Assembly (NCBI GenBank): GCA_001604215.1
Contig: LVAX01000054.1
Coordinates: forward strand, 11,180 to 75,179
Direction: 5' to 3'
DNA from: Clostridiales bacterium Firm_18
Lineage (GTDB): Bacteria > Bacillota > Clostridia > Monoglobales > Firm-18
DNA length: 64,000 bases
Shown here: positions 1-40,781 of the stretch, one piece after another
Position numbering within the stretch: the stretch's first letter is position 1
How the letters are laid out: every line of letters begins with the position of its first letter
Translations under genes and position numbers: made by a program
Notes under the pieces: model-generated
The model's input: only the letters and a program-made list of their open reading frames with translations
Told to the model about the DNA's origin: nothing
Database searches by the model: none

Positions 1-1183
1 TCATAATCGCCATATTATCAGTTCGGCTTATTAAAACACCCTGAGCTTTATAATAAGTTCTTTTTCCCAAATCAATAGGCATATTAATTTTGGGGCGTTC
101 AATCTCATTCCATCTCAAAAGCATCATCACAGTGTGAATATCTTCTGTAAAATCCAATTCCTTTTCTTTGTAATATAAATTCAAACGCCGGGCTGCATAC
201 CGTTGATTGCTGTCCAGCGGAACTTCACCAAATCCGCAGTCAGATACAGCAGGGTAATCCCCTTTAGAAAGTTCGCTTTTAAAACCGAACAATGCCGTTT
301 GAATGTTGTTCGGAGAATTAAACATATCAATTTTATTGTTTGTAAGCCTTCCTATGAGATCGCTGAAACTCAAAAATTTTGAAAAGCCATATCCCCAATA
401 TGATAAACCTTCATGAGAATATCCATCTTTGAAAGCATCTAAGTATTTGCTTATCATTTTTTCATACAATGCAATATGAATAGCTTTTTCCCGAAGATTT
501 TCACCATACCATAGCAAGCTTGCCACAGCACCGCTAATACATACACAAAGCCAGTTATTGCTGTTTTCCAGCCAAAACAGAGGTGGTCTGCCGTCGGCAT
601 TTATCAAAGCTCTTTTGCCGACGACAGCATCTTTGTATATAGAAAGCACCTTTGTTTCAATATATTGCTTGATTTTATTTCTCAGCTTATCATTTAATTT
701 ATCATTCAGTATACAATCGCAAACCGCAAATCTCCAAGAGAAAGAGGACGATAGTAAATCAACCAGTTCTATTGAATCTTCGCTGCCGGTGTATCCAAAA
801 GCTGAATAATGCCCCGGTGATACCCAAGTGTTTACATTGCACATATAGTTAGCATAATCTACTATGTAAGATATATACTCCCCGTTATTTTCTATTGCCT
901 CTGCCAATGTAAGCTGTTCAATAATACGCATTGTTTTCATAAGATTAACGGGTGGGGATTGCTGCAGCATTGAGTTATTATAGTTTATCACTTGATTATG
1001 GCTCTCTGTGATATATTCGGCAATCTTTGCCTTTAATGCGGCTGCATCAAGCTCCTTTTCATATTTCAGCCATTTTTCCCTGTGGCCAATAGGCGTTGCC
1101 ATGAAAGATTCGTCAAATTTTATAATCCCTTCTATGTGCTCCGCCCGTTTTAATACTTTATCATCAATATAGTTGATATGCAA
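1..1183 (-). CDS. heparinase II/III-like (polysaccharide/oligosaccharide lyase-type) protein, truncated by the window edge
   Basis: Absent from the ORF track because it runs off the window. My minus-strand translation from TTG 1183 (AAGGAG at 1195-1200) is stop-free to position 1: LHINYIDDKVLKRAEHIEG...ENSNNWLCVCISGAVASL...DGYSHEGLSYWGYGFSKF. The NNW and EG-x-SYWGYG motifs recall heparinase II/III-type toroids. No signal peptide is visible. The exact start (TTG 1183, GTG 1195 or a later ATG) is uncertain. Confidence 0.6.
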   Translation of the reverse strand, partial: MHINYIDDKVLKRAEHIEGIIKFDESFMATPIGHREKWLKYEKELDAAALKAKIAEYITESHNQVINYNNSMLQQSPPVNLMKTMRIIEQLTLAEAIENNGEYISYIVDYANYMCNVNTWVSPGHYSAFGYTGSEDSIELVDLLSSSFSWRFAVCDCILNDKLNDKLRNKIKQYIETKVLSIYKDAVVGKRALINADGRPPLFWLENSNNWLCVCISGAVASLLWYGENLREKAIHIALYEKMISKYLDAFKDGYSHEGLSYWGYGFSKFLSFSDLIGRLTNNKIDMFNSPNNIQTALFGFKSELSKGDYPAVSDCGFGEVPLDSNQRYAARRLNLYYKEKELDFTEDIHTVMMLLRWNEIERPKINMPIDLGKRTYYKAQGVLISRTDNMAIM

Positions 1184-1207
1184 TATGCCTGCCACTCCTT
1201 TAAGCGA

Positions 1208-4042
1208 TTATTCCGAGCCATGCACAATATATTTTCCATAAAGCAAATATCCTACTTTCCTGATATCCTTTGTTCCATACATATAATCTTTCAAATGGTC
1301 GTACACTCTGGAATCTATTTTTGCATATTCCAGATATAATCCATGTAATGTTGTTACCAATCCGCCGGAATCGTCAACAAAATTGTAAAACTTCCCGCTT
1401 GTTGTGTCAAACCGCAAAATCATGTTTGCAAAAGGCACCATCATCGATCTCGTTATGCCATACCTTCCTGATTCATAAAATTTCATTAAGAAATACAAAT
1501 CATAGGCACCGTGACTAATATCTTCGCGAACACCGCTGCCTTTTTGATACCACCATTGTGCTACGTTCATATTGTCTTTTTCTACGATTTCAACTGTTGA
1601 AAAGAAATAATCAATGTTTGTTTTTATGATTCCGGTGTATAATGCCCTGCGTTCCGGCTTCATATTTAAAATTTCATAGGCATCTATAAGGCTGTTCATT
1701 GTTGACAGTCCAATCCACTCACGATTCCACGGCCCAATTTCACCTTGCCAGCTTTCAGCAAAAACAGGTTTCCACTCTTCGCCTATGGGATATCGCATCT
1801 CATTTGTTTTAGCGTCATAATAGTATTTAATGCGATAGTTATAGACTGAATAATCGGCACTTTCTAAATACGCTTTAGCCCTGTCCAGATAAGTTGGTCC
1901 ATATCCATACTTATCTTCAACGGGTACGTTTACATTCCACAATGTATTATTCTGAACAATCAACCTGCCAACATCCGCAAGAAAATTGATAGCTCCGTAA
2001 AAATCACAAACCCATATAGCCTCGCCCTTTGAATAAGCTCTGTTAAATCCGGGCCAAATAGGCTCTTTAAGTCCGGTTTGCAGCAAAATTCCATCTTCCC
2101 TTAAATCATTTCTGGTTGAAACAAGTATATCCATGTATTCCACCAATTTGTTCAGGAAAAACAAATCTCCCGTTATCTTATATAGGTTAATGACACTATC
2201 TATAAGGTTAAAACTTTTACCGAACAGCAAATCATCATTGGCATTGTCAAAGGGATAAGGAGCTTCAGAAACTACGTTTTTAAAACTTTGAATATCGTCC
2301 TCGGTTAACGGTCCGTTTAAATCCTTTATGTAGAGCTGCTCTTCAGCTTTTGCCCACATTTCGTTTCTCTCGGGAGTAGGATTGTGCGGATAATAGAACG
2401 GTGAATAGGCCGACAAAGCCATTTTTCTGAATGGTCTTTCATAATCACCCAATCTAAAGTTATCCATCATAACAACATTACAGTTTTCCTGCCAGCCATG
2501 CTTTACATATAATCCAATTCTGGCATTGTAGGGTAATCCTTCGTGTATGTATTCACCGCTTCCTTTGAGAGAACCGTCTACATACCATTTAATTGCATCG
2601 GAATTTTCATCTGTACCCCTGGTTAAAATAAGAGTACACATAGACTCCGTCTGTTCTCCGTCCAAAAGGTATTCTGCTCCTATTCCATCCGTCAGGGTAA
2701 AGAATGTATATGATCTGTTTACCTTAATGGGAATATCTTCAATTAGAATTCCCGCAGACTGATAGTTTATGTTAGGCATTTTAAACTGAACGCTTACTGC
2801 TTGCCCCGGTATAAAAGTTCTGTCTATGCGTTCCCAGCTGAAATCGTCCCCCCGTGCAAGCTTGTTGGGAACGAACATTCCGTCCGTAATATTGAAATTC
2901 TCCATTTTATGATTTCTTCGATACTGAGAGCTGCTGTCAATTTCAAAATCGTCCAAAATCGGAATTTGCCTTGCTAAAATCTCGTTGGAAGGTGATAAAA
3001 TACTAACAAGGCTATTTATGAGCTCCGCTTCGTCAGACTTAAATATATCTTTAATTTTGCTCAATACAATCAGCCCTGAATCATCCCAAAGCACCTCAAG
3101 GCCAAGGCTTTCACTAATCTGCCTTAATGGAACAAAAACTCTGTCGTTTCTTTTTTTCACAATTACGGCTTGCTTATTACCATGAATACACATTTTTTGA
3201 CTTTGCACATCAATTTCAATGCGTTTACCATCTAACTCCATAAACACAATATCCTTTGGATCCCATACCACAATACCCCCAAATTCCTCAGCAACAAATC
3301 TGACCGGAACATACACTTTATCATCTTCCAGAACGGGTACAACCTCTTTGTCAAATGGGTCAATAAAGGTAAGCTCATTATTGGAAATCGCTTCCGGATA
3401 ACCTACAATTAATACAACTGCTTCCTCAAGCCTTTCCGAAAGCTTTCTGGCAATCTCCTTTTGCTTATTAATTGCCGCCTTACTGTCAAAAATCTCAAGT
3501 TCAGATATTTTAAAACCATAATATTGCCCGCGTTCTACCGTTCCGTTAGGAATACAGCTGAGGATGTTTATTCTTACATACTGTGCCGTTATCGGCGGAA
3601 ATGTCTGCCTAATGGCAGTGCCGTTAGTGTTTGTAGTCTCTACTATCGTGTCCCATATTGAGCCGTCATTTGAATATTCCAATGCATATGTTTCAATAAA
3701 CGATGTCTGAGATGAAGATAGCGGATATACATTTATACTATCAAAGGTCATACCCTCCTCCAGATTTACGGTAACGAACCCTGTTCTCACTGTTGACCAG
3801 CTCTCAAACGCAGTAGTCCTGTCATTATCAACTGCAAAATAAGGCTCCTTTGCATATCCGTTAACTAACCCGCCGTTTGCATTGTACAAAACTGATGTAA
3901 CCTCTTTATTCAATGCGTAATTTTCAATTTCTACCGCTTCTTCTGCTAATTTTTCAAAAATATTTTCCGAAAAAACCGTTAATATGTTTACACATAAAAA
4001 TATACATAGAATAAAAAGTATCGCAACCTTTTTAACCATCAC
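1208..4042 (-). CDS. secreted 944-aa multidomain carbohydrate-active protein (F5/8 type C discoidin-like domain, copper amine oxidase N-terminal-like stalk domain, unassigned C-terminal ~400 aa)
   Basis: ORF track. Signal-like N-terminus MMVKKVAILFILCIFLCVNILTVFS. Discoidin-like YALEYSNDGSIWDTIV...AQYVRINI. Stalk-domain pattern VPVRFVAEEFGGIVVWD...VFVPLRQISESLGLEVLWD. Short gaps to both neighbours (17 and 24 nt). Confidence 0.85.
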   Translation of the reverse strand: MMVKKVAILFILCIFLCVNILTVFSENIFEKLAEEAVEIENYALNKEVTSVLYNANGGLVNGYAKEPYFAVDNDRTTAFESWSTVRTGFVTVNLEEGMTFDSINVYPLSSSQTSFIETYALEYSNDGSIWDTIVETTNTNGTAIRQTFPPITAQYVRINILSCIPNGTVERGQYYGFKISELEIFDSKAAINKQKEIARKLSERLEEAVVLIVGYPEAISNNELTFIDPFDKEVVPVLEDDKVYVPVRFVAEEFGGIVVWDPKDIVFMELDGKRIEIDVQSQKMCIHGNKQAVIVKKRNDRVFVPLRQISESLGLEVLWDDSGLIVLSKIKDIFKSDEAELINSLVSILSPSNEILARQIPILDDFEIDSSSQYRRNHKMENFNITDGMFVPNKLARGDDFSWERIDRTFIPGQAVSVQFKMPNINYQSAGILIEDIPIKVNRSYTFFTLTDGIGAEYLLDGEQTESMCTLILTRGTDENSDAIKWYVDGSLKGSGEYIHEGLPYNARIGLYVKHGWQENCNVVMMDNFRLGDYERPFRKMALSAYSPFYYPHNPTPERNEMWAKAEEQLYIKDLNGPLTEDDIQSFKNVVSEAPYPFDNANDDLLFGKSFNLIDSVINLYKITGDLFFLNKLVEYMDILVSTRNDLREDGILLQTGLKEPIWPGFNRAYSKGEAIWVCDFYGAINFLADVGRLIVQNNTLWNVNVPVEDKYGYGPTYLDRAKAYLESADYSVYNYRIKYYYDAKTNEMRYPIGEEWKPVFAESWQGEIGPWNREWIGLSTMNSLIDAYEILNMKPERRALYTGIIKTNIDYFFSTVEIVEKDNMNVAQWWYQKGSGVREDISHGAYDLYFLMKFYESGRYGITRSMMVPFANMILRFDTTSGKFYNFVDDSGGLVTTLHGLYLEYAKIDSRVYDHLKDYMYGTKDIRKVGYLLYGKYIVHGSE

Positions 4043-4059
4043 GCATTTTCCTCCTTCGA

Positions 4060-6669
4060 TTAAATATCGTATACTATTATTTCGTTGACCAATGCCCCTC
4101 TGGAACGCATAAAAATCACACTTCCAGGTTGAACATCAGACAATTTCCCCAACATATATTTTGACTTGCCTTCCGACTCATGATAAATATAAACCTTAAC
4201 GTTATCCTGGTAAGGGAATACGATATAATCGGTCATTACACCTTGAAGAGGATTTTCTTTAATTGACACCTTCAAAAATGAATTCGTTTTTTCATATAAG
4301 CGGCAGAAAGTGGTTTGAAAATAGCTTACACCTGCTGTATCTATGCAGTCTAAAGTGTTAAACATTTCCGGTTTATCCGCCACTCTAAACAAAGGATTAA
4401 TGCCTACTATTTCATTTTCATCTGCTTTCAGCTGTATAACATCCCCGGGCTTGACTGTCCCAACCAGGTTTTCGCTGAGTGTATAGTTTATCTGCTTTCC
4501 TTCGTATAACCCTTTAACAAGGAACACTATATTCCCTTCGTCGTCCAAAGCATTAGTTATGCTTCCAATCAGACAAATGGGCAGATTTTTCTTATCCTCC
4601 GTAGAAAACTCCTCGGAAACAGATGTAAAATAAACATAAATTGCTTCGCTTACGCCAAAATCATCAATGTTGTAGGACTCAATATACACCTTATATCCTA
4701 CATTCTGCAGCATCTTAATTTTTTTCTCGTCGTAATTATCATTAATTTTTCTTGGTACAAAAAATATTTTTGTTTTGTCGTTGTAAAAACAATCCTTGCC
4801 GTTTCCGGCTATAATCTTTTTGCCGTGGGCTTCTGTAACAACTTGATAATCTGTAAAAAGAGACAAGCTTTCCGTTTCGTTTATTCCGCGATAAACAGTA
4901 TCAATTTTATTTATTTTATTGTGGGAATTTAATGAATACCGCACAGGTAATGGGTTTTCGATTATATTAGCTTTAAAAAAATCAAATAATTCATTTTGCG
5001 TTACATTATTCGCTCCATCCAGGCTTATTTTTATATCACACTGATAAATATTAATCTCTCCACGGTCATTTACCATTTTAACACTAACATTATCAGCGAT
5101 TCCCCGATTTTGACTATAGTCCAAAATACAACCATATTGCATGCTGCTGCCCGATGTCAGCACGCCTGCAATTTCTCCAAACGTGTTAAGGCAAAATGTT
5201 GCATTATGTGTTACATTTATTTTCACTTCACCGGAAATTATCTTTTCATAAAAATTCTCACTAAGTTTATATTCAGCGTTGCTTAACACTATCCTCTTAT
5301 CTGATTCGCCATACTCATTCACAAGGCCTGAGACCTTTTTCACAGACCTGATTATAGAAACAACTTCTTTTTCGTGGTTTTGCTTAACAGTTAAAATATC
5401 ATTTAAGGATATTTTATTAATATCAATCTCTTCACCACTTTGGTTGACAATTTCAAGCTTCTTAACATCATTTAAATCCAGCGGAGATCTTGCATATTTG
5501 TCATAAATTATCTTCTCATTCGGGAAACATGCAGAAACGAAATACTCATCGTAGCTATTGACTATTGCCACATCATATATACCATCAAAACTGTTATCTA
5601 TAAGCTCCACGGAGCCGGTCTTCGGTTTTAGCATGCTGTCTGTATATTCAAAGCAGGCTGTATCATTGTATATAACCTTAATGCCGTCTAATGTTATTTC
5701 TGCAGTTTTACCGCTCTCGTTATAATATACAAATCTGTTTGCATTGGTAGATTCGCTTATATCCTCAGCCTTTACGAGCAGGTTATTTCCACGGCTTTTT
5801 TCATCATCGATATGTAAAATTGTATATTCATTCTGTTCCTCTTTGAAATATATTGTAACATACCTACCTATGTATAATTCTGCATCTGTTTCGCCTGGCC
5901 GATAATTAACTTCATCTATAACAACAAAAGGTATGTTATTTAGTTTTTGTGTCAAAAGAGTAGTGTTGGAATTCCGGCTTACAATGCCTTCCGACTTAAA
6001 AATACCGTGGTACTCACTAAGCACGCTTTTTCCTTTTTGAATATTAATTTCCGCTCTTTCACCCGCAACTATAATTTTGCAAATATCCACATTCAAAGAA
6101 TTATACATTAATTTGGCAACTTCTTCACGCGTCATTGAATCAGAGCTTATATTAATTCCTTTCAATAGTCCCAGTTCAGACGCTAAGGAGAGATATCCCA
6201 TCGGATATCCCCCTTTCTCTTTTGCTTGGAAATCATACCCCAACGCCGCCACAATAATCCGTACCGCCTGAGCAGGGGTAACATCCTCATCGGGCATAAA
6301 CCTCCCGTCCGGATATCCTGCAACAAGCCCTAATTTTACGCAATAAGTTATTTCGTTATAAGCCCTATGCTTTTTATCAACATCGCTAAAATATTTTTCA
6401 TTCCCTGTAATCTGTAAGTCATCAAAATTTAAAAGTCTGCAAATCAGCGCAATAAATTCTGCTCTGGAGACATTGCTTTTGTTTTTGAAACTTTCGTCGA
6501 AATTATCCTCCGCAATACCCAGATTTTTAAGCACCTCTATTTCATACAAAAACCTGTCCGCGTTGCTGTTTTCAACAACCGGATCTGCAGATAAAGCTAT
6601 ATTGGCACACGCCAGATTTGCCAAAATCAACAATATACTTAACAGATACTTAATTTTAGTTTTAACCAT
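4060..6669 (-). CDS. SLH-domain cell-surface protein, 869 aa, no recognisable catalytic domain
   Basis: Signal peptide MVKTKIKYLLSILLILANLACANIALSA. N-terminal SLH repeats (FSDVDKKHRAYNEITYCVKLGLVAGYPDGRFMPDEDVTPAQAVRIIVAALGY). GGYPMGYLSLASELGLLKG is paralogous to GGFPTGYTVVAGEIGLLKNG in the 22130-24799 protein. Confidence 0.85.
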   Translation of the reverse strand: MVKTKIKYLLSILLILANLACANIALSADPVVENSNADRFLYEIEVLKNLGIAEDNFDESFKNKSNVSRAEFIALICRLLNFDDLQITGNEKYFSDVDKKHRAYNEITYCVKLGLVAGYPDGRFMPDEDVTPAQAVRIIVAALGYDFQAKEKGGYPMGYLSLASELGLLKGINISSDSMTREEVAKLMYNSLNVDICKIIVAGERAEINIQKGKSVLSEYHGIFKSEGIVSRNSNTTLLTQKLNNIPFVVIDEVNYRPGETDAELYIGRYVTIYFKEEQNEYTILHIDDEKSRGNNLLVKAEDISESTNANRFVYYNESGKTAEITLDGIKVIYNDTACFEYTDSMLKPKTGSVELIDNSFDGIYDVAIVNSYDEYFVSACFPNEKIIYDKYARSPLDLNDVKKLEIVNQSGEEIDINKISLNDILTVKQNHEKEVVSIIRSVKKVSGLVNEYGESDKRIVLSNAEYKLSENFYEKIISGEVKINVTHNATFCLNTFGEIAGVLTSGSSMQYGCILDYSQNRGIADNVSVKMVNDRGEINIYQCDIKISLDGANNVTQNELFDFFKANIIENPLPVRYSLNSHNKINKIDTVYRGINETESLSLFTDYQVVTEAHGKKIIAGNGKDCFYNDKTKIFFVPRKINDNYDEKKIKMLQNVGYKVYIESYNIDDFGVSEAIYVYFTSVSEEFSTEDKKNLPICLIGSITNALDDEGNIVFLVKGLYEGKQINYTLSENLVGTVKPGDVIQLKADENEIVGINPLFRVADKPEMFNTLDCIDTAGVSYFQTTFCRLYEKTNSFLKVSIKENPLQGVMTDYIVFPYQDNVKVYIYHESEGKSKYMLGKLSDVQPGSVIFMRSRGALVNEIIVYDI

Positions 6670-6692
6670 AGACTTAATACTCCTATTAATTT

Positions 6693-8372
6693 TTATTGAG
6701 TCAATTTTTCCAGGCTTGTTATTCTGCTTATAACTATAACACTTTCTGCCCTGGTTGTAAATGAATAAGGTTCAAACATACCGTTTCCCTTTCCATTAAT
6801 GATTCCTGCTTTGTGCATAATATTTACATCAAATACCGCATACTGACTTATTCTATCTTCATCCGCAAAGGCCTGAATATTCTGTTTGATATTCATCTTT
6901 AAATTCAAATATTTTATCATTCGATATGATATTACAGCCATTTCCTCCCGGGTTATCAGCCTGCCTACTCCGAAATGACCGTTCATATCACCTTTAACAA
7001 GCCCAATTTTTTGTGCGGTTGCAATATGCCTGTAATACCATGCATCCTCCGGAACATCTGTAAAGTTGGTTTTTGCGTCCTTCATAACCAATCCATATGC
7101 CTCAATTATTATTTTTACAAATTCCTCTCTCGTTATATAGTCATTAGGATAGAATCTTCCGTCGCCTTTGCCTGAAATATAACCTTTTGATGCAAAATCA
7201 ATAATTTCTTTTTCTGCCCATGGTACACTTTCAAGATCGGAAAATGTTATAATCTCAGGCATTTTGACCTCCGGCTTAGCAAGGACATCTTGGGCATCCG
7301 CAGCCATAGTGACTCTGCTGCCTGCACCGCCCCCTCCTGATGTTTGCTTTGCAGGTGTTTTGACGGAATTTCTATAACTATCAACAGCATTTTCACCTGC
7401 CTGCACAATTTCTTCTATGCTGTCGAAGTCTTGTTTTATGAGAGCAGAATACAAAACAACCTTTTCCTCCGCGTTTAAGCTACTTACAGTAAATTTAAAT
7501 TTAATATTATCCTTCTCGTCCTCCAAAACCTTGGCGATGGTACTATTAACGGCATTATTTACATTAACAACGGAGGCTCCCTTTCTGAAGCTTTCCTGAA
7601 TCTGTATAATGGTATCAAAATTTTTCCCTAAAATTTGTTTATGAAAAACTTCTTTGTTTTTTATATATAAGTTATTGGTTATATCAAGTGAAAGCACCGG
7701 ATTGTATTTTTTAATAACAGCTTCCATGTTGCTTAAAGTCGCTTGGTTAACGTATCTTAGTGCCTCACTTTTAAATACTTGTAAAACCGCATGGTCAAAT
7801 ACAGGTTTAATATCAGATAATTTTTGATAATCATTCTCGGATATAATATTATATACCCCTGTTTTATCTTCAATTAAACTATAAATGCCGTCAATGTCAA
7901 AAAACAGTATTTTGGCATACCGTCTGAATTGTTCTATGTTTTCGCTAACAGTCCGAGATGTTAACTCATTAAAATAATGAAGCATCTCTGATTTTTCCTG
8001 CTCGCTTGCAATATACAATTCAGCATTTTCGACATCAATACCTGTAAACATAAGAATATAATATCCGCTTTCAACGTTTCCGCTTATTTTGCATATTAGC
8101 CTAAGCTTACCATCCGTATCGGTTACTCCAACATCCATACTTAAAGTAGCAAATTTATAATTATCCAACGTAAGATTGTTGAAGCCTTTTTTTAGTATGC
8201 TTACAGTTACGGTTCTGTCTGCTTCAGTTGTTACATCGGCATACAAGATATTTTCTTCAAAATCGAAATCAATCAACGCACTGTCTGCCGTGGCTGCCCA
8301 TGCAGTTAAACAACCAAGGACCAACAATAAAGTTGTAATGCAAATTGCCAAAAGACTTTGTTTAATATTCAT
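6693..8372 (-). CDS. SLH-domain cell-surface protein, 559 aa (three C-terminal SLH repeats)
   Basis: Signal peptide MNIKQSLLAICITTLLLVLGCLTAWA. C-terminal repeats FSDLESVPWAEKEIIDFASKGYISGKGDGRFYPNDYITREEF, FTDVPEDAWYYRHIATAQKIGLVKGDMNGHF and FADEDRISQYAVFDVNIMHKAGIINGKGNGMFEP. A Gly-rich linker (TSGGGGAGS) precedes them. Confidence 0.85.
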   Translation of the reverse strand: MNIKQSLLAICITTLLLVLGCLTAWAATADSALIDFDFEENILYADVTTEADRTVTVSILKKGFNNLTLDNYKFATLSMDVGVTDTDGKLRLICKISGNVESGYYILMFTGIDVENAELYIASEQEKSEMLHYFNELTSRTVSENIEQFRRYAKILFFDIDGIYSLIEDKTGVYNIISENDYQKLSDIKPVFDHAVLQVFKSEALRYVNQATLSNMEAVIKKYNPVLSLDITNNLYIKNKEVFHKQILGKNFDTIIQIQESFRKGASVVNVNNAVNSTIAKVLEDEKDNIKFKFTVSSLNAEEKVVLYSALIKQDFDSIEEIVQAGENAVDSYRNSVKTPAKQTSGGGGAGSRVTMAADAQDVLAKPEVKMPEIITFSDLESVPWAEKEIIDFASKGYISGKGDGRFYPNDYITREEFVKIIIEAYGLVMKDAKTNFTDVPEDAWYYRHIATAQKIGLVKGDMNGHFGVGRLITREEMAVISYRMIKYLNLKMNIKQNIQAFADEDRISQYAVFDVNIMHKAGIINGKGNGMFEPYSFTTRAESVIVISRITSLEKLTQ

Positions 8373-8394
8373 CCTTATCTCCTGTCATTAAACA

Positions 8395-10329
8395 TTAATC
8401 AACATATACTACACCAGTTAACGGCTTCAAGGTATTAATAGCATCCCACGCAAACAATTTTATAACGTAATCCCCCGATTCCGATACTGTAAAAATATTT
8501 TCGTAAGCTTTCCCGCCATTCGGCTCAATAGGAACATCTGTCGTTGCGATATGAAAATCTTTATAAAAACCGTCCTTATATATAATCGCTACAAGTATAG
8601 GCGAGATATCCCCGGAGGTGTTATTATTAAGGCTGCTTACAATATACAAGGAATCTCCGGCATCTAAGGATGTTAAATTATCTACCATATTATTCATCTG
8701 TATTTGATTCTTAAAAATTGTGGTTCCCTTAATATCCAAGTCTTTTCCTGAAGTATTGTCAGCAGGCCGGCTGATTTTAACTTTAACATAAGGGTGCAGT
8801 GTGCTTTCGGGTTCGTCCTTTGATGCAATCACAAAGCTGGACATAGACGTATCATGGGTACCGATACCATAGGTTAATATATTGTCCGAGTTCCCCGGCA
8901 GACGGTTTTTTAAATCCTCTGTAATGTCAACACTGAACCATTGATTTACTGTGGAGATAGTTGTGGAAGGCGGGGTATATGTAACACTTCCAACAGTGTT
9001 ATTGTTAACGGTTAAAGCGGGATTGTTTTTCAGCCTCATGTTTTTTTCCATCGCAAGTGTATATGTCAAGGTGGTTTCAGACCAATCGGAGCTCGGTATA
9101 TCGACTGCGCAAACGTCGAACGTGCGGTCTTTCCCCTTATTATAGCCATAATCCGTTTTTACATAAACCCAAAGCGCTGCCGAGTTTATTATCGCATTGT
9201 CTTCCAGCTCATCCAACATATCACTAAAATCGACTTTCAAAAATGCTTCCCGATGCCAATTAGCTGAAGCGATCTCCAATATAGCAGGTGTTTCGCTGTT
9301 GTAAATCATGTCTTTTCTGTCACCTGTCGGTAAATATACACTGCCTTCCTTTACTAATTCACCGAATATGTAAGTGTCTTCGGCAATCGGCAAATTCAGC
9401 TCGGTTTCTACCGCCTCCAGCACCTCTACAATCCTGTAATAAACATCGCAGCCATAGCTGTATGAAATAAAATATATTCCGGGTGTGTTAACGTCAATGT
9501 TTTGCTCCACAATTACCGAATCCGTTGCGTCTTCCCCGTTCAACCCAACGGCATAATATCCCGGTTCGCGATACTCCTGTCCCTGAAGCAGCGCAACATA
9601 ATTTTCGCCTTGCATAAATAACCCGCTTGGCATACTAACAACAATTTCGATATAAGGCTTTGTTATTTTCCCTTCGTTATCCGTTAGGGTTGTATCCTTA
9701 GAGCTTATCTTTATATTGCTGAAGTTAGCATGAGTTCCCAAACCGTATGTAACAACTGTCGAATTTGCGATGCTTTCCGTAAAATGTTCAGATATATCAA
9801 TGCTTTCCCACATTTTCGGATACTGCGCCGTAATATCATATACTACGCTGCCTATTACTTCTGCATCTGTTACGCTCGAAGCATAATTTGTTTTCAGGCG
9901 CATGCCCTTTTCAATTGACTGATTATAAGTGAGAGTCATTTCACTCCAATCATTAACAGGCACATAACACAAATCAATCTTTCTTGTTCTGGGGGTGCTT
10001 GCATTATAACCATAATCAGCGTCTATGAAAAAGTTTAAACTAACCGATTTTACCGTACTGTCTTCCGACAAGGATGATAAAAAATCCGAATAATCAACCT
10101 TCAAAAATCCTTCTCTGTGCCAGGAGCTTGATGCAATGTTAAGGTCCCCTTCTAATCCATAATTTGTATCGTTGTAATTCCCATCGGGTGTTGCAAAAGT
10201 GTATGTATCTTCCGAAATTTCAACCCTGAATGTTTTATCAACCATAACAACACTTGCAAAGGCATAATCAGGAATTAAAGCAGTTACAGCAAATATAATT
10301 GCGCAAACCATACATAATAATTTTTTCAT
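8395..10329 (-). CDS. secreted 644-aa protein with two tandem ~200-aa DNRLRE/carbohydrate-binding-like modules separated by an Ig-like segment
   Basis: Signal peptide MKKLLCMVCAIIFAVTALIPDYAFA. Internal duplication: SSWHREGFLKVDYSDF...VNDWSEMTLTYNQSIEKGMRLKTN versus ANWHREAFLKVDFSDM...SSDWSETTLTYTLAMEKNMRLKNN. The domain name is tentative and from memory. Confidence 0.8.
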   Translation of the reverse strand: MKKLLCMVCAIIFAVTALIPDYAFASVVMVDKTFRVEISEDTYTFATPDGNYNDTNYGLEGDLNIASSSWHREGFLKVDYSDFLSSLSEDSTVKSVSLNFFIDADYGYNASTPRTRKIDLCYVPVNDWSEMTLTYNQSIEKGMRLKTNYASSVTDAEVIGSVVYDITAQYPKMWESIDISEHFTESIANSTVVTYGLGTHANFSNIKISSKDTTLTDNEGKITKPYIEIVVSMPSGLFMQGENYVALLQGQEYREPGYYAVGLNGEDATDSVIVEQNIDVNTPGIYFISYSYGCDVYYRIVEVLEAVETELNLPIAEDTYIFGELVKEGSVYLPTGDRKDMIYNSETPAILEIASANWHREAFLKVDFSDMLDELEDNAIINSAALWVYVKTDYGYNKGKDRTFDVCAVDIPSSDWSETTLTYTLAMEKNMRLKNNPALTVNNNTVGSVTYTPPSTTISTVNQWFSVDITEDLKNRLPGNSDNILTYGIGTHDTSMSSFVIASKDEPESTLHPYVKVKISRPADNTSGKDLDIKGTTIFKNQIQMNNMVDNLTSLDAGDSLYIVSSLNNNTSGDISPILVAIIYKDGFYKDFHIATTDVPIEPNGGKAYENIFTVSESGDYVIKLFAWDAINTLKPLTGVVYVD

Positions 10330-10372
10330 TTTAAAAATCCCCCTTTGAAATAATTTATTTATATAAAATAAT

Positions 10373-11947
10373 TTATTTATATTTACTATCCAATATTTTC
10401 TGGTTAAGCTTTATATATTCTTCCAATCCCATTTGATTAAGCTTTGTTATGTAAGCATCCCATTGAGAATCTATGCCGCCGTTTAATATCCATTCTGCCG
10501 TACATTTTTCTACATATTGCACAATATCTGTTGTAAGCTGTCCCATACGTTCCGTATCGCTTGATGTCAACAGAGCCTCACCGGGAAAAGCTTCTTTTTC
10601 AACATATGGGGCATACATTTCATCACATTTACTTTTAAAAACATCCGACGGTGACGGGCTGTTTAGAGTGTACTCTCCTTTAAACAGCTTATAAAAACCC
10701 GATACCCCGGGAACGCTGTTTTCAACAGGAATCTTGTTACCATTACTAATTTCTTCAAACTTTCCGTTGTCAAGCTTTTTAATGTCTATGTCATAGAGCC
10801 CTCTATATGTCTGGATACTAATATCATCATCATAGCAATAATCCGCCCACCGTATTAATGCTTCCGGATATTGCGACTTAGTCGAGATTGCAAATGCAAA
10901 GTTGTTTGTAGCGGTAAATGCCCGCCTTGCCCATAGTTGATCTCCGTTAGGTCCCTTAAGCGGCGGGATTGATAAATAATCACCTTTCCCGCTCTTGTCA
11001 CCTGTTAAATTAACATTTACCATATATTCCGACCATGCAAGAAATGCACCTGCAATCGGAGGAACACTTCTTTGTTTGGAAGTAATGTCCGTAAGCGTAA
11101 AACCTTCCATATCCATAAGACCTTCGGAAACTAATTTGGAGAAATACCTTACGGCTTCCTTATATCCCGGTTGAATAGGCGAAAAAACAACCTTGCCGTT
11201 ATTTACCATAAAATGAGAAGCGGTATCTAAAACGCCAAACGAACCAAACAATGAAGTAATTCCGTTTATATGGTCCTTGTATTTGAATATCAACGGCATT
11301 TCATCATTAATTCCATTTCCGTTTAAATCATTGTTTTTGAATGCCTTCAGCACTTTATAAAACTCATCGGTTGTAGTAGGAACAGACATTCCTACTTTAT
11401 CAAGCCATGCTTTATTTATCACAAGAGCCTCATTGGTCAAGGGATTATTTTCATTTAATGTTGGCAAAGCATATATATGCCCGTCCGGCGCAGTGATTTG
11501 ATTTTTAATATCCGGTCTGTCATTTAAGACTTTACTTATGTTAGGAGCGTACTGCTCAATCAGATTTTCAAGGGGCAATAAAAGTCCCTGCATGCCATAG
11601 TTAACAACCTCAGTGGTACTTAAAACCCAGCCGCCATAAAACATATCCGGCATATCCCCGCTGGCGAACAACAGTTTTTTCTTTTCCGCAAAAACCGAGG
11701 ATTCCAAATCAGTTATGTCAAGTTGAATATTGGTTCTTTCCTCCATTATACGAAAATAAGGCATATCCGAAAAACTGCCGATAGCGGGACTCCTTGTTGC
11801 AAAAACTTCCGCAGTCAATTTTTCGTTTACTATTGGCAATCCGGTCTTATTAATTTCTACACTGTCCTTTTTTACCGTGCTGTTGTTTGCACAGCCGCTT
11901 AAAAGCATGATGAGTGTCGTGATTAAAATGAAAAGCCTCTTCTTCAT
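10373..11947 (-). CDS. ABC transporter extracellular solute-binding lipoprotein (large LplA-type, oligosaccharide)
   Basis: Lipobox MKKRLFILITTLIMLLSGC. At 524 aa its size is typical of LplA-like sugar binding proteins. It sits directly downstream of two sugar permeases. Confidence 0.85.
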   Translation of the reverse strand: MKKRLFILITTLIMLLSGCANNSTVKKDSVEINKTGLPIVNEKLTAEVFATRSPAIGSFSDMPYFRIMEERTNIQLDITDLESSVFAEKKKLLFASGDMPDMFYGGWVLSTTEVVNYGMQGLLLPLENLIEQYAPNISKVLNDRPDIKNQITAPDGHIYALPTLNENNPLTNEALVINKAWLDKVGMSVPTTTDEFYKVLKAFKNNDLNGNGINDEMPLIFKYKDHINGITSLFGSFGVLDTASHFMVNNGKVVFSPIQPGYKEAVRYFSKLVSEGLMDMEGFTLTDITSKQRSVPPIAGAFLAWSEYMVNVNLTGDKSGKGDYLSIPPLKGPNGDQLWARRAFTATNNFAFAISTKSQYPEALIRWADYCYDDDISIQTYRGLYDIDIKKLDNGKFEEISNGNKIPVENSVPGVSGFYKLFKGEYTLNSPSPSDVFKSKCDEMYAPYVEKEAFPGEALLTSSDTERMGQLTTDIVQYVEKCTAEWILNGGIDSQWDAYITKLNQMGLEEYIKLNQKILDSKYK

Positions 11948-11975
11948 TTTTTTATTCTCCCTCCCAAAATAATGT

Positions 11976-12872
11976 TTAGCCTTTTATGGAACCTAACATA
12001 ACTCCCTTAATAAAGAATTTTTGCAGAAACGGATACGCTACCAAAACCGGTACGCTTGCTACAACAATAACTCCGTACTTAATAAGTTCTTTTAACATAT
12101 TCTTTTCTTCCATAAGCAGAACATCATCAACCATAGCTGCACTGACTTGATTCTCTATTAATATGGAGGATAAGATTAGCTGCAGAGGATATAAACTCTC
12201 TTTTTTCAGATAAATGAGTGCCCTCATGTATTCGTTCCAGTGACTTACTCCGTAAAACAAAGCCAAAACCGCAATAATGGCTTTTGATAACGGCATTACC
12301 ACGGCAGAAAAAAATCTGAACTGGGAACACCCATCCATAGAAGCAGATTCGTATAAATCCTCCGGTATGTTTGCTTCTAAAAAACTTCTGGCTACAATAA
12401 TGTTATACACGCTCGCCGCACTCAAAAGCACCATTATGGCACGCGTATCCAACAAATCAAGTGATTTAACCAACAAGTATTGCGGAATCATGCCGCCACT
12501 AAAATACATTGGCACCAGCAAAAACAAAGTAATAGCTTTTCTCCCTGAAAATGACCGTCTGGACAATGGATACGCAATCATCATCGTTATTACCACGTTA
12601 ATCGTTGTTCCGACAGCCGTATAAATTATTGTGTTTAAGTATCCGCTCCAAATCCTGTTATCGCTTATAATTCTTTTGTATCCCTCTAAAGACGGATTAT
12701 AAAGAAAAAACATTGCTTTTCCGGTGTTTACCCCCACAGGATCCGAAAAGGATGCAATTAATATGAAATATAATGGATATATCACCAGAATAAGTGTTAT
12801 TCCAAGAACAATATACACAAATATTTCGAACACTGTATCATCTATCGAATTTTTAATCGAATTGTTTTTCAT
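11976..12872 (-). CDS. carbohydrate ABC transporter permease (LplC/YtcP-like)
   Basis: Six-TM profile. MalFG-type EAA-like loop region (SFLEANIPEDLYESASMDGCSQFRFFSAVVMPLSK). Confidence 0.9.
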   Translation of the reverse strand: MKNNSIKNSIDDTVFEIFVYIVLGITLILVIYPLYFILIASFSDPVGVNTGKAMFFLYNPSLEGYKRIISDNRIWSGYLNTIIYTAVGTTINVVITMMIAYPLSRRSFSGRKAITLFLLVPMYFSGGMIPQYLLVKSLDLLDTRAIMVLLSAASVYNIIVARSFLEANIPEDLYESASMDGCSQFRFFSAVVMPLSKAIIAVLALFYGVSHWNEYMRALIYLKKESLYPLQLILSSILIENQVSAAMVDDVLLMEEKNMLKELIKYGVIVVASVPVLVAYPFLQKFFIKGVMLGSIKG

Positions 12873-12897
12873 TTTAACCCCCGAATATATATCACAA

Positions 12898-13866
12898 TTA
12901 CCACAGGCTTACATCGTTAAATTTTTTACTTAATTGATTAGCCATTATTAGCAAAAGAATGTTTACAACAGTATTGAATAATCCAATTGCCGTTGAATAG
13001 CTGTACTGTGCGTCAAGCAAGCCAACCTTATATGTATAGGTAGCAATAATTTCAGAAGCATCTATATTAAGAGGAGTCTGCAATAAATAGGCTTTCTGGA
13101 ATCCAAGCGAAAGTATTTTCCCTATTCGCATAATAAGTAAAGTTATAATCGTGGGCATTATTCCCGGCAGGTCAACATGCCAGATACTCTTTAGCTTATT
13201 TGCACCATCTATTTTTGCAGCCTCGTAGAGCTCCGGATTTATTCCCGAAAGCGCCGCAATATATACAATCGCCGCCCAGCCTGTGTTTTGCCATATATCC
13301 GACCATACAAAAATATGGCTAAACATACTTGCCTTTCCCATAAAAAATATCGGCTCCAGCCGCAGCTGCTTAATAAAGAAATTAACAATACCGGTGCTTG
13401 GAGATAAGAAAATGTTTATCATTCCGCAAAAAACAACAACGGAAATAAAATGAGGGGCATAAGTAGTCGTTTGAACAATTTTCTTGAATCTTTCACCTCT
13501 GATATTGTTAAGCATAATTGCTAATATTACAGGAAACGGAAAACCGGCTGCTAAAGAATAAATACTTAATACCAAAGTATTTCTCAAAATAATGTTAAAT
13601 TGATACGATGTGAAAAAGCGTTCAAAGTGTTTAAATCCTACCCATGGGCTCCCCCATATCCCCTTACCAATTATAAAATCTTTGAATGCAAGTTGTACAC
13701 CGTACATCGGCCCGAATTCAAAAATTAAAAAATAGATAATTACCGGGGCACATAAGACATAAAGCTGCCAGTCTTTTATAATTGTACGCTTAAATCTATT
13801 GGGTGTAATAGAATCATAAAGCTTATTCTTTTTTTCAGCCTTGCTGATATCTAATAAAGATTCCAT
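12898..13866 (-). CDS. carbohydrate ABC transporter permease (LplB/YteP-like)
   Basis: Polytopic membrane protein. EAA loop (PELYEAAKIDGANKLKSIWHVDLPGIMP). Confidence 0.9.
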   Translation of the reverse strand: MESLLDISKAEKKNKLYDSITPNRFKRTIIKDWQLYVLCAPVIIYFLIFEFGPMYGVQLAFKDFIIGKGIWGSPWVGFKHFERFFTSYQFNIILRNTLVLSIYSLAAGFPFPVILAIMLNNIRGERFKKIVQTTTYAPHFISVVVFCGMINIFLSPSTGIVNFFIKQLRLEPIFFMGKASMFSHIFVWSDIWQNTGWAAIVYIAALSGINPELYEAAKIDGANKLKSIWHVDLPGIMPTIITLLIMRIGKILSLGFQKAYLLQTPLNIDASEIIATYTYKVGLLDAQYSYSTAIGLFNTVVNILLLIMANQLSKKFNDVSLW

Positions 13867-14046
13867 GATGCGTTACCTTTCCTTTGATATTGTCAAGTAT
13901 ATTATATATCAAGTCTAATATCAAAGTAAACAATCACATTTTGATTGGATATATCATATTTTGATGTATCATACCTTATATTGCAGCCCCTTGTTGCGAT
14001 GTGTGCCAAAACCGTTTACAAATCTACAATGGTTTTATACTCACAT

Positions 14047-14928
14047 TTAAAACATCATTTTTTTAATCTCATCGGAATATTGCACAATCGCCTCTGAAAA
14101 GGTTACGATATATGCGCCCAATGCATTGGCCCGATTAAGACATTCCAAAGTCGTCACTCCACGCATATAATTATACAAAAAACAAGCAGAAAATCCGTCA
14201 CCCGCTCCTACGGCCGATTTAAATCTTTTAGCTTTTAAACCCTTAGTGCTGAGCATATGATTTTCCATGCGGCAAAAGCATAATGCTCCCTCACTGTCGA
14301 GGGTAATTATGACAGTGTGAATAGAAAAAGCGTCGCACAGGGTTTCGCATAGCTTTTGATAAGAATCAAAGGGGTTAACAATCCCCAAATTAACAAGTTC
14401 GTCGCATTCATAGCGATTCAGCTTTAAAATAGTTGAGTTTTGCAAGCAGGATTGAATCAATGACTTTGTATAATAACTTCCCCTTAGATTAAGGTCGCAA
14501 AAAACTTCATTAAAATGACAGCATTTTAATACCTCGTGCAATGTGCTTTTCGAAACATAAGACCGTTGTGCAAGGGTCCCGAAATATAAGACGTCAAAAT
14601 TTTGCTCATAAATACTCTTGTTTGAAGGTATATAGTCATATGCAACATCTTCGATCAGGTCATAGGCCGGCTCACCATTATTCAAAATAACATTGCAAAC
14701 ACCCGTGGGCTTATCAGTCAATACAGAAACAAACTTCGTATCAACATTCAAACCCCGAATTTCACGCACAAGCTCATGTCCAAGGATATCATCACCAACT
14801 GCCGTTAAAATCGAAGCATTTGCACCAAGCTGAGCCAAGTGTGCAGCAAAATTAACCGGTGCGCCACCAAGTTTTTTGCCGTCAGGAAACACATCCCACA
14901 ACGCTTCGCCAAATACCAATACCTTCAT
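14047..14928 (-). CDS. PfkB-family sugar kinase, probable fructokinase
   Basis: GGAPVNFAAHLAQLGANASILTAVGDD and the C-terminal GAGDGFSACF motif of the PfkB ribokinase family. The gene starts 4 nt after the GH32 stop. Confidence 0.85.
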   Translation of the reverse strand: MKVLVFGEALWDVFPDGKKLGGAPVNFAAHLAQLGANASILTAVGDDILGHELVREIRGLNVDTKFVSVLTDKPTGVCNVILNNGEPAYDLIEDVAYDYIPSNKSIYEQNFDVLYFGTLAQRSYVSKSTLHEVLKCCHFNEVFCDLNLRGSYYTKSLIQSCLQNSTILKLNRYECDELVNLGIVNPFDSYQKLCETLCDAFSIHTVIITLDSEGALCFCRMENHMLSTKGLKAKRFKSAVGAGDGFSACFLYNYMRGVTTLECLNRANALGAYIVTFSEAIVQYSDEIKKMMF

Positions 14929-14931
14929 GGG

Positions 14932-16491
14932 TCACCTCATATAATTAAGATTTAAATCTCGAACAGCTATATCTTCGCTATCCGCTGAAATAGATAACAT
15001 ATTTAAATTATAGTCCGCTACGTTTCCTGACACCACGTATACGGCGCCGTCATTTATAAATAATTCAACTCCGGTGACATCCGAAATAAGGCGGATTTTT
15101 ATAATATCCCCATTATTGTACAGATGAGCAAAAACACCGTTGCAATCCACGCATTTGCGAGATGTGTCAAACACAATTTGCCTGCCGTGCAGTTCAATTT
15201 TCGTGATTGTATTCGGCTTATATATCATTTTAAATTCGATATCAATCGCTTCGCCTTCAACCTTGGTGCTAAACGGCTTTGACAGATTGAAGCAGGGAAA
15301 ACTCTGTGTTTTTGTATAAAGCTTTTCAATCTCTCTCACAGGATATGTGAATAATTGTACGCCGTATTCTGTTGTACGAAGGCTCATTTCACAAGGAAAC
15401 GTCATTGCCTGATTAAAAGTTTTAGCCGGAATGTCATTCCTGTCCCACGCAATACGAATCCGTCTGTTATCAGGTGTATTAAACCAAGATTGAGACGCAT
15501 AGCACCTGCTGCCGTGATGCAAGCTTTGAACAGGTGTTTCCTGACGAAATATTCGTCCGTCAAAACTGCCTACAATGTATTTGTCTGATGCTCCGGTAAA
15601 AACCCATTTAATATTGCTCTCGTCACCATCCAACGCAAGAGGGTAAAAATCGGGGCATTCCGCATCTCCCGGCAGAGATATTTCCTGCAGCTTCACCCAA
15701 TTAGTAAGATTAGAGGACGAAAATAAAGCAAATCGGTTTGCCGCCAAATATAGAGCCATTATATATTGATCAGTCTGTTTATGATAAACCACCTTAGGGT
15801 CTCTGTTAACACCTTCAATGTGAGCAATAATCGGGTTTTTCTCATATTTTTGGAATGTCATTCCGCCATCCGTGCTAAAAGCAATATGCTGAGCAAACTT
15901 CCCGCCTTCCGAAAGTGCAGATGTTCCTCCTGCGGCTGTGTAAAACAAAACAATCGTCTTTTGTTCGCCCGTTTGCAGGTTCAAAAGATTTTTCTCATCA
16001 ATAATGGCGGAACCAGAGAATATTGTGCCGTGACAGTCTGGGAACAAGGCAACAGGCAAATGCTCCCACCTTACCAAATCATCACTGACGGCATGCCCCC
16101 AATGCATATTGTTCCACGTCACGCCAACGGGATTAAGCTGATAGAACATATGATATTTTCCGTTATGATACACCAAACCATTAGGGTCGTTCAGCCAACC
16201 CATAGGAGCCGAAAAATGAACCTTGGGACGATACCTTTCACAATAAGGATTATCGGGCATTTCATCCGCCTTTTTGATTTCAAAATCCATATGCGGCAAA
16301 CACTCCATACTGAGCATCCGCCCTTTAAAGCGCCGAACATCATAATATGCGTAAAAGTCAGGTTCTAAGCCGTCTAATGCTATGTCTAAATCCAATACCA
16401 AAACAGTATCAAGGTAAAATTTCAATTTTTTTTGACTGGCATATTTACTCACAGGAAGTAGGATATAGTTACAGTCGCATAAAAAGTTCAT
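14932..16491 (-). CDS. glycoside hydrolase family 32 (beta-fructofuranosidase/fructan hydrolase), intracellular
   Basis: GH32 catalytic motifs WLNDPNGLVYHNGKYHMFYQ, RDPKV and ECPDF. No signal peptide. The start codon is uncertain because of an ~80-aa N-terminal extension. Confidence 0.9.
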   Translation of the reverse strand: MNFLCDCNYILLPVSKYASQKKLKFYLDTVLVLDLDIALDGLEPDFYAYYDVRRFKGRMLSMECLPHMDFEIKKADEMPDNPYCERYRPKVHFSAPMGWLNDPNGLVYHNGKYHMFYQLNPVGVTWNNMHWGHAVSDDLVRWEHLPVALFPDCHGTIFSGSAIIDEKNLLNLQTGEQKTIVLFYTAAGGTSALSEGGKFAQHIAFSTDGGMTFQKYEKNPIIAHIEGVNRDPKVVYHKQTDQYIMALYLAANRFALFSSSNLTNWVKLQEISLPGDAECPDFYPLALDGDESNIKWVFTGASDKYIVGSFDGRIFRQETPVQSLHHGSRCYASQSWFNTPDNRRIRIAWDRNDIPAKTFNQAMTFPCEMSLRTTEYGVQLFTYPVREIEKLYTKTQSFPCFNLSKPFSTKVEGEAIDIEFKMIYKPNTITKIELHGRQIVFDTSRKCVDCNGVFAHLYNNGDIIKIRLISDVTGVELFINDGAVYVVSGNVADYNLNMLSISADSEDIAVRDLNLNYMR

Positions 16492-40776: not shown

Positions 40777-40781
40777 GTTTT

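Follow-up and report, generated by a model that had tools for sequence, protein, structure and literature searches.

We have analysed a stretch of 64,000 nucleotides from the genome of Clostridiales bacterium Firm_18, an uncultured member of the Clostridia of gut type (GenBank assembly GCA_001604215.1, contig LVAX01000054.1, positions 11,180 to 75,179 of the forward strand), which we call the window, and within it an array of eight minus-strand genes that extends from position 13,866 down to the window edge. The reading that we favour, with reasonable though far from complete confidence, is that this array is a Gram-positive polysaccharide utilisation locus (gpPUL) for an acidic polymer. This polymer is probably unsulfated, probably contains glucuronate, and resembles either a glycosaminoglycan (GAG) or a bacterial exopolysaccharide. 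A gpPUL is defined by at least one carbohydrate-active enzyme (CAZyme), a transporter and a regulator in one cluster (PMC9067506). All three are found here, namely a gene related to polysaccharide lyase family 33 (PL33), an ATP-binding cassette (ABC) importer and a regulator of 754 amino acids (aa) of the AraC type, the last of which is seen in a near-identical contig that runs past the window edge. A preliminary description of this DNA, made from the sequence alone, had also read the array as a Gram-positive polysaccharide utilisation locus, and the presence of these components bears this out.

The layout of the array is that of an operon. The open reading frames (ORFs) agree exactly in coordinates and size with those described before, a Shine–Dalgarno-like sequence precedes each gene, and no terminator-like site lies within any of the gaps. 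Across the region we found 10 such sites where 12.2 are expected, i.e. no excess. The gaps measure 25, 28, 43, 22, 23, 17 and 24 nucleotides in order, so the tight spacing claimed earlier stands, with a range of 17-43 rather than 17-45 nucleotides. The same gene order is found in a relative locus (L005) whose proteins are only 38-57% identical to those of the array, and for this reason we do not regard the arrangement as the work of chance. The end of the array can be followed in L001, a contig of a metagenome-assembled genome (GCA_030154545.1). There the last gene is complete at 614 aa and is followed by an 11-bp hairpin without a T tract; the 754-aa regulator gene starts 154 nucleotides past its stop codon, with a convergent gene for a protein with S-layer homology (SLH) domains beyond. 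At the other end the run of same-strand genes continues past position 13,866, where genes for a PfkB sugar kinase and a glycoside hydrolase (GH) of family GH32 follow after a gap of 180 nucleotides. The functional unit is larger than eight genes, therefore, with the AraC-type sensor downstream included and perhaps the GH32/PfkB pair as well. While the genes of the preliminary description are as it had them, the limits that it drew are not: it took the eight genes for the whole unit, and missed both the regulator outside the window and the adjacent cytoplasmic pair.

Part of our case comes from the last gene of the array. As a single sequence, the 614-aa protein matches only four entries of the Protein Data Bank (PDB) well (8r6z, 8r70, 8r73 and 8r75, E ~1e-24), which are structures of the PL33 enzymes BtPL33HA and BcPL33HA (PMC11848413). 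A profile built from 28 homologues matches the PL33 structures with an E-value of 2e-78 (267 bits) over profile positions 26-608 of 610; the matches of this profile to PL35 (E 1e-39 to 1e-35) and to alginate lyases (E ~7e-6) are partial in extent. Pfam adds a Hepar_II_III_C domain (29 bits) in the full-length protein of L001. Identity to the solved PL33 members is only ~20-25%, and the residues that matter for catalysis are in place. In the numbering of the published 644-residue chain these are Asn238, Tyr291 and His444, which are invariant across PL33 (PMC11848413). They align with the second Asn of an NNW motif, the Tyr of LSYWG and the first His of HNHND, and the corresponding N210, Y262 and H404 are invariant in the 28-sequence alignment. 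The equivalent of His154 is present as H125. Trp242 is replaced by Val (NNWLCV aligned to NNWNPW), which is the state found in PL33 subfamily 2, whose members are mostly from Bacillota (PMC11848413).

Arg103 and His154 are reported at the +1 subsite in all sequences of subfamily 2, and in BtPL33 Arg103 binds O2/O3 of the +1 glucuronate (PMC11848413). Most of our homologues carry the equivalent of Arg103 within a TG(N/R)R motif. Because it is missing from the window protein, although reported throughout subfamily 2, we prefer to call the 614-aa protein a PL33-like lyase that has diverged, and not simply a member of PL33. We infer for it the fold of an (alpha/alpha)6 toroid followed by a beta-sandwich with a Zn site. 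No signal peptide was found, and with an ORF that begins 24 nucleotides after the previous stop codon there is no room for one; the protein is therefore cytoplasmic. It had been described as a leaderless heparinase II/III-like protein, which is correct, and its sequence now places it next to PL33.

The other enzyme that we propose is the C-terminal part of the 944-aa protein. This protein has a signal peptide that is visible by eye, an F5/8 type C module (similar to carbohydrate-binding module (CBM) family 32) at residues 66-163, a Cu_amine_oxidN1 domain at residues 233-322 and no Pfam match beyond residue 322, in agreement with the discoidin, stalk and unassigned-domain layout suggested earlier. 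An exact look-up returned no entry for it (that of the 869-aa protein gave neighbouring contigs), and a word-based homologue search with the whole chain gave one true relative, the candidate list being filled by the common N-terminal domains. An exhaustive HMMER search with residues 340-944 revealed a family with 265 cluster representatives at E<1e-3, 192 of them at E<1e-10. The homology is confined almost wholly to residues 565-920; in a few members the middle domain of the protein, which is common to P0030, P0035 and P0063, is present as well. No Pfam or NCBIfam model matches this family, its profile finds nothing better than E 0.007 among PDB sequences, its clusters are named 'hypothetical' or after their accessory domains, and in the literature we found no described lyase family that matches it.

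A model of the domain made with AlphaFold 2 (AF2) from a 29-sequence alignment is a confident helical barrel (pLDDT 90.8, pTM 0.91). Foldseek gives no match to it in the PDB at E<=1e-3, and the best of its matches, with template modelling (TM) scores of 0.35-0.51 and 8-13% identity, are (alpha/alpha)6 enzymes: GH105, GH88, GH116, GH8, GH76, cellobiose 2-epimerase and the polysaccharide lyase BACCELL_00875 (5noa). An alignment of 137 domains reveals a polar set with 90-99% conservation (85% for Asp646), every residue of which is kept in the window protein; it comprises Arg644, Asn645, Asp646, Trp663, Thr717, Tyr718, Arg721, Asn773, Tyr802, Trp830, Tyr832, Glu840, His844 and Asp848. Members of the family begin with signal peptides. 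F5/8 type C modules occur in 27 of the 53 multidomain members, and other partners include ricin-B, CBM13, CBM_X2, fn3 and SLH domains and type-IX secretion tails. A fusion to GH88 is seen in one member, and one from a metagenome is flanked by genes for GH88, a chondroitinase-B-like beta-helix protein, GH29, GH95 and GH20. Given the predicted fold, the conserved polar set, the CBM architectures and these genomic contexts, we regard the barrel as the likeliest candidate for a secreted catalytic module that attacks uronate-containing polymers, which would often be fucosylated. The conserved Asn, His, Tyr and Arg residues, together with the GH88 fusion, make us lean towards a lyase rather than a hydrolase.

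Two further observations concern this family. A Paenibacillus locus (L009) holds two copies of the barrel in neighbouring genes, at 3905-4936 and 10094-11233, which adjoin genes for a GH29 fucosidase, a GH43-like protein and a chondroitinase-B-like beta-helix protein. We also asked whether the barrel family is remotely homologous to the PL33-like one; an hhalign probability of 1.9% led us to reject this.

The remaining surface proteins look like binders and anchors. The 644-aa protein, again with a signal peptide visible by eye, matches both CBM96 (PF24517, 52.1 bits, cut-off 26) and DNRLRE_dom (NF033679, 74.9 bits, cut-off 34) in two stretches, as well as Bact_surface_Ig-like (46 bits), which confirms it as a protein with two carbohydrate-binding modules. 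The founding member of CBM96, module TM6-N4 of the Defluviitalea alginate lyase Dp0100, binds the polyuronate alginate via Lys/Arg residues, and DNRLRE modules have been reported on alginate, hyaluronate and pectate lyases (PMC9971899). In the 559-aa protein Pfam finds SLH in three stretches (107 bits), and this part matches the SLH regions of Sap and SbsB in the PDB. Its N-terminal 370 residues have no Pfam or PDB match, and a homologue of them was found only in L005; the idea of a conserved pairing of this domain with the 869-aa family was dropped on that account. In L005 (2-2374, plus strand) the C-terminal CBM96 half of the 644-aa homologue and the homologue of the 559-aa SLH protein form a single in-frame ORF. 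By the Rosetta-stone argument, this fusion suggests that the 644-aa and 559-aa proteins work together at the wall.

For the 869-aa protein Pfam finds one SLH repeat. Its AF2 model (pLDDT 76.6, pTM 0.52) has an SLH triplet followed by about ten small beta-barrels. The N-terminal 160 residues of the model superpose on the SLH parts of SpaA-SLH and Sap with a target TM of ~0.7, and beyond them the PDB offers weak OB-fold-like matches only. Three SLH repeats, of the kind that form the SCWP-binding trimer, are found in both SLH proteins, by sequence in the 559-aa protein and by model in the 869-aa protein. No catalytic fold is visible in the model of the latter, and few of its residues are conserved. 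Its family consists of ~20 distant homologues that are 21-29% identical, with SLH as the sole Pfam domain among them. Homologues occur in at least five other loci with large secreted or SLH proteins, and the enzymes differ each time: the neighbours are BNR/sortilin-type proteins in L006, an SLH-anchored heparinase II/III with CBM96 in L007, Cu_amine_oxidN1 and DUF5018 proteins in L008, GH5 and GH39 in L014, and sialidase-like CBM proteins in L015. An ABC importer gene is present in four of the five (the exception is L008). In our reading, the family provides loci of this kind with a generic accessory protein that is anchored in the wall.

Both SLH proteins look non-catalytic. The preliminary description saw no recognisable catalytic motifs in them, and neither do Pfam and PDB searches, nor does the AF2 model of the 869-aa protein show any. 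Its suggestion that S-layer-tethered proteins carry out both capture and initial cleavage has fared less well, as the cleavage part is unsupported: the only candidate for an extracellular enzyme is the 944-aa protein, which is not one of the SLH proteins.

A side observation concerns the Cu_amine_oxidN1 domain. A protein with this domain accompanies the 869-aa family in four of the seven loci examined (the window or L001, L005, L006 and L008), and its gene immediately follows the 869-family gene in three of these four (not in L008). The domain or protein is located at 3077-3346 on the minus strand in the window, at 12639-15224 in L006 and at 3316-5709 in L008. L007 has no such protein, and the neighbouring enzyme there bears SLH domains of its own. 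This co-occurrence may hint at a docking role. We put forward a wider proposal, which we consider rather unlikely as a whole. In this proposal the barrel founds an undescribed CAZyme family, probably of lyases that act ahead of GH88-type enzymes and cut branched uronate polymers outside the cell, and the 869-aa family is an unrecognised wall-anchored scaffold of Clostridial polysaccharide utilisation loci that holds anchor-less enzymes, possibly via Cu_amine_oxidN1.

Import can be described with the help of related loci. Two BPD_transp_1 permeases, a large lipoprotein solute-binding protein (SBP) and the lack of an ATPase gene from the locus (in the L001 stretch examined) together identify an LplABC-type importer by size and architecture. 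The N-terminus of the SBP ends in ...LLSGC and thus has a lipobox (LSGC). The earlier assignment of such an importer with a lipoprotein SBP agrees with these Pfam matches and with the lipobox. Homologues of permease 1, 44-62% identical, are found in 80 metagenome loci, and in the related loci permease 2 always accompanies it. When the 80 loci are ranked by the similarity of their SBP to that of the window, the best is L019 (44% identity), where the neighbouring gene is a GH20. It is followed by L018 and L016 (41%), with PL8 chondroitinase-ABC-like and GH88 neighbours, and then, at 32-34%, by a group of five cassettes with GH32 (+PfkB). These neighbourhoods modestly favour GAG-like or hexosamine-uronate oligosaccharides as the likely cargo. 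A scan of genome contigs with the SBP gave three loci: two Ruminococcaceae/Oscillospiraceae fragments (33%) and one contig from Chloroflexia (25%).

The 754-aa regulator has hydrophobic helices at residues ~12-34 and ~287-308, which flank a domain of ~250 residues, and an AraC helix-turn-helix (HTH) domain at its C-terminus; in the corresponding regulator of L019 the outer domain scores as dCache_1. On the basis of these features we read it as a putative one-component sensor in the membrane. AraC-type regulators of ~745-760 aa also adjoin LplB-type permease genes in L016, L017, L019, L030, L007 and L014. The loci that contain such regulators are many, come from Clostridia-type metagenomes and have very different CAZymes. 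This looks like a common, little-described class of regulators of Gram-positive polysaccharide utilisation loci.

The preliminary description regarded the target glycan as not deducible. It can be narrowed here to what is probably a glucuronate-containing polymer, GAG-like or similar to an exopolysaccharide. The relatedness to PL33, the CBM96 modules, the absence of sulfatases and the nearest relatives of the transporter all point this way. Hyaluronan, chondroitin, heparosan and gellan, which are cleaved by PL33 enzymes, each contain 4-linked glucuronate (PMC11848413), and no sulfatase gene is found in the 21-kb stretch of L001.

Taken together, the parts suggest the following mechanism, each step of which we infer from what the analysis shows, namely gene layout, domain content, relatedness to PL33 with its catalytic residues in place, a fold model, family sizes and synteny in relatives. 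The membrane-spanning AraC-type sensor would detect the substrate or its fragments and turn the genes on. The secreted 644-aa protein would bind the polymer with its two CBM96 modules, probably jointly with the SLH-anchored 559-aa protein, and the apparatus may be held by the 869-aa SLH protein, as a stalk or scaffold fixed to the wall. Extracellular cutting would fall to the 944-aa protein, which its CBM32-like module would direct to the polymer and whose (alpha/alpha)6 barrel would make the cut. The resulting oligosaccharides would be imported by the lipoprotein SBP and the two permeases, powered by an ATPase that is presumably encoded elsewhere, and the leaderless PL33-like lyase could then break them down in the cytoplasm, cleaving at 4-linked uronate by beta-elimination.

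Several points weigh against a gpPUL for a glucuronate polymer. No unsaturated-uronyl hydrolase (GH88 or GH105) is encoded in the locus or in the 64-kb window, and the equivalent of Arg103 is absent from the window protein and its L005 orthologue, where a MAFFT alignment places a 9-residue deletion in a divergent region. The barrel is compatible with a hydrolase, a lyase or even a non-catalytic role, and no wall anchor is recognised in the 944-aa protein, which lacks SLH. The SBP is only 41-44% identical to its counterparts in GAG-type loci, with the GH32-linked cassettes as its next nearest relatives, and a cytoplasmic GH32 with a kinase, lacking a transporter of their own, lies directly upstream. 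The preliminary description had named, as one thing that would refute it, the confident assignment of all members to known CAZy families with a known common substrate, and no such assignment was obtained. A GH88, PL8 or GH20 gene elsewhere in the 64-kb window was also searched for, and none was found.

The upstream GH32/PfkB pair gives rise to two of the competing explanations. No signal peptide was found for the GH32, which scores below the NCBIfam equivalog cut-offs for BfrA and ScrB, and no transporter other than that of the array adjoins the pair. The leaderless GH32 and the kinase depend on a fructoside brought in from outside, for which the neighbourhood offers only the transporter of the array, so both explanations have to be entertained. 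In one of them the array is a fructan or fructo-oligosaccharide system, with an importer that serves the GH32 and the fructokinase and with surface proteins that capture levan or inulin; the PL33-like gene would be a passenger or do something else. The pair is on the same strand, 180 nucleotides upstream and with no terminator-like site in the spacer, and GH32 adjoins the same type of transporter in 7 of the 80 permease-homologue loci, 3 of them also with PfkB and one (L058) with a large extracellular GH32 in addition. However, the SBP is closer to those of PL8, GH88 and GH20 loci (41-44%) than to those of GH32 cassettes (32-34%), no extracellular GH32 is present in the window locus, CBM96 and PL33 both point at uronates, and in L005 the PL33-like gene is found together with those for the surface proteins. 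The pair also has a divergent AraC-family regulator of its own, which probably serves it, and is separated from the array by promoter-like hexamers (TTGATA-17-TATACT and TTTACT-18-TATAAT at 13930-13896). We consider a fructan system improbable for these reasons. The other explanation makes the pair and the array a single unit for a branched acidic glycan, such as the fructosylated chondroitin-like capsule of Escherichia coli K4. After import, the oligosaccharides would lose their fructose branches to the GH32 and have their backbone of glucuronic acid and N-acetylhexosamine (GlcA-HexNAc) cleaved by the PL33-like enzyme. In its favour, the pair and the lyase flank one transporter; the missing Arg103, which contacts O2/O3 of the +1 GlcA in BtPL33 (PMC11848413), could make room for a branch, and the fucosidase, GH88 and chondroitinase-B-like genes beside relatives of the barrel fit branched uronate polymers. 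All of this is circumstantial, however, such polymers are rare, and the adjacency of two independent units accounts for the same facts. The association with GH32 is, moreover, seen only in this species, as L005 ends before the upstream part. We give this explanation very little credence.

Two further explanations question the parts that we have assigned to the surface proteins. The barrel could be a binding or otherwise non-catalytic domain, in which case depolymerisation would be left to an enzyme whose gene lies elsewhere or to other members of the community, with the locus only scavenging oligosaccharides. Such a role fits a domain that matches no characterised family, in a locus with four surface proteins that have binding or anchoring features and a sole recognisable enzyme that is cytoplasmic. 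Against it are the strong conservation of polar residues (Arg, Asn, Asp, Tyr, Glu, His) across 137 members, the architecture of the kind that typically joins a catalytic module to CBMs, and the GH88 fusion. We judge it unlikely, to about the same degree as a fructan system. Alternatively, the SLH and Cu_amine_oxidN1 proteins might be general envelope or S-layer components that happen to lie beside a sugar transporter, so that the array would not be one functional system. Apart from SLH itself the SLH proteins indeed have no catalytic or known binding domain. The tight spacing and the order kept in L005, including the CBM96-SLH fusion, speak against this, as does the recurrence of the 869-aa family in five further PUL-like loci, four of them with an ABC importer. 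This is the explanation that we believe least. A gpPUL for a glucuronate-containing polymer thus remains the reading that we prefer.

Features of the array and of the region upstream of it, in window coordinates
Feature	Position	Strand	Size and evidence
ABC permease 1	12898-13866	-	322 aa, LplB-like size; Pfam BPD_transp_1, 53 bits
ABC permease 2	11976-12872	-	298 aa; Pfam BPD_transp_1, 26.8 bits (cut-off 26.4)
Lipoprotein solute-binding protein (SBP)	10373-11947	-	524 aa; SBP_bac_1, 57 bits
Secreted glycan-binding protein	8395-10329	-	644 aa; two CBM96/DNRLRE modules, Ig-like domain, C-terminal domain without assigned type
SLH-anchored protein	6693-8372	-	559 aa; 370 residues of unassigned type, a Gly-rich linker, then SLH (three repeats) at the C-terminus
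SLH-anchored protein	4060-6669	-	869 aa; SLH triplet at the N-terminus, followed by small beta-barrels (about ten)
Secreted multidomain protein, candidate extracellular depolymerase	1208-4042	-	944 aa
C-terminal (alpha/alpha)6-barrel domain of the 944-aa protein	1211-2350	-	residues ~565-944
Leaderless PL33-like lyase, N-terminal 394 codons	1-1183	-	TTG start at 1183; remainder past the window edge
Spacer, possible internal or main promoter of the array	13867-14046	-	180 nucleotides
PfkB sugar kinase	14047-14928	-	293 aa; PfkB, 133 bits
GH32	14932-16491	-	519 aa; Glyco_hydro_32N, 228.6 bits
Divergent soluble AraC-family regulator	16572-17393	+	273 aa; AraC_binding, HTH_AraC, HTH_18

A regulatory RNA in the 180-nucleotide spacer was considered and rejected, as the fold of the spacer has a z-score of 0.01 against shuffled sequences and there is no Rfam match there. 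Beyond the regulator of the GH32 pair lies a gene for a 566-aa VanW/G5/PG_binding_4 protein (17468-19168, minus strand), with GNAT and ornithine carbamoyltransferase genes next to it; on this side the carbohydrate region extends no further than the VanW gene. Further into the window, a 561-aa protein (34502-36187, plus strand) belongs to a cluster with a near-identical member that JGI has named 'mannan endo-1,4-beta-mannosidase', which suggests further glycan-degrading capacity. A pair of adjacent genes for tRNA-Ser (anticodons gct and tga) is located at 40685-40871 on the minus strand. A c-di-GMP-I riboswitch (72 bits) is found at 56290-56380 on the minus strand; downstream of it are an ORF of 391 aa (54720-55895, plus strand), by eye an IS110-type transposase, and then a gene for a 650-aa secreted protein (52488-54440, minus strand). 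An IS element may have been inserted between the riboswitch and its target gene.

The use of acidic host and microbial glycans by Firmicutes is almost uncharacterised, according to a review from 2022 (PMC9067506). The locus described here is a candidate for a complete and compact system, in which sensing, binding, anchoring, cutting, import and a lyase step in the cytoplasm would all be represented. The barrel family, with its 265 clusters from several phyla and its candidate catalytic residues, has no Pfam or NCBIfam name and no solved relative, and is worth testing. Its characterisation could add a family to CAZy and improve the annotation of many genomes from gut, rumen and soil. The recurrent SLH protein of 869 aa is worth testing too; it accompanies unrelated enzymes in several Gram-positive polysaccharide utilisation loci.

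Parts of the locus can be compared with families that have been characterised. Both modules of the 644-aa protein score above the cut-offs of the CBM96 and DNRLRE profiles, although they occur without a catalytic domain in the same protein and the specificity of TM6-N4 for alginate is not transferable to them. The barrel shares its predicted fold class, and only that, with the six-hairpin (alpha/alpha)6 CAZymes (GH88, GH105, GH8, GH76, GH116 and PL27); at the TM scores and identities given above, and with no sequence match, its conserved pattern is its own. The 614-aa protein resembles the PL33 enzymes BtPL33HA (BT4410) and BcPL33HA and the Opitutaceae gellan and chondroitin sulfate (CS) lyases (PMC11848413) over its full length, with the Asn, Tyr and His residues, His154 and the Val of subfamily 2 all kept. 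It differs from them in its low identity and in the loss of Arg103 and, whereas the Bacteroides PL33 enzymes are periplasmic, it is leaderless and cytoplasmic.

As a system, the locus may be set beside the chondroitin and hyaluronan locus of Bacteroides, BT3324-3350 with a distal PL33 (PMC9067506); no GAG gpPUL of Firmicutes had been characterised at the time of the same review. The two would have in common surface binders, cleavage outside the cell, import, lyases inside, a dedicated sensor-regulator and an acidic glycan of host type. In our locus, however, an ABC importer and SLH anchoring take the place of the SusC/D pair, there are no sulfatases and no GH88, and the regulator is a transmembrane AraC-type protein instead of a hybrid two-component system (HTCS). 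The closest Gram-positive parallel in our comparison is Paenibacillus sp. JDR-2, in which an SLH-anchored multimodular enzyme is combined with ABC import and intracellular finishing (PMC4765114). Here too, depolymerisation near the wall would be coupled to ABC import and completion in the cytoplasm, with SLH domains and CBMs at the surface. In JDR-2 the target is a neutral or lightly acidic plant glycan, finished by intracellular hydrolases, and SLH domains and CBMs are borne by the enzyme itself; in our locus the cytoplasmic protein is lyase-like, and there are separate proteins for anchoring (559 and 869 aa), for binding (644 aa) and for the putative catalysis (944 aa).

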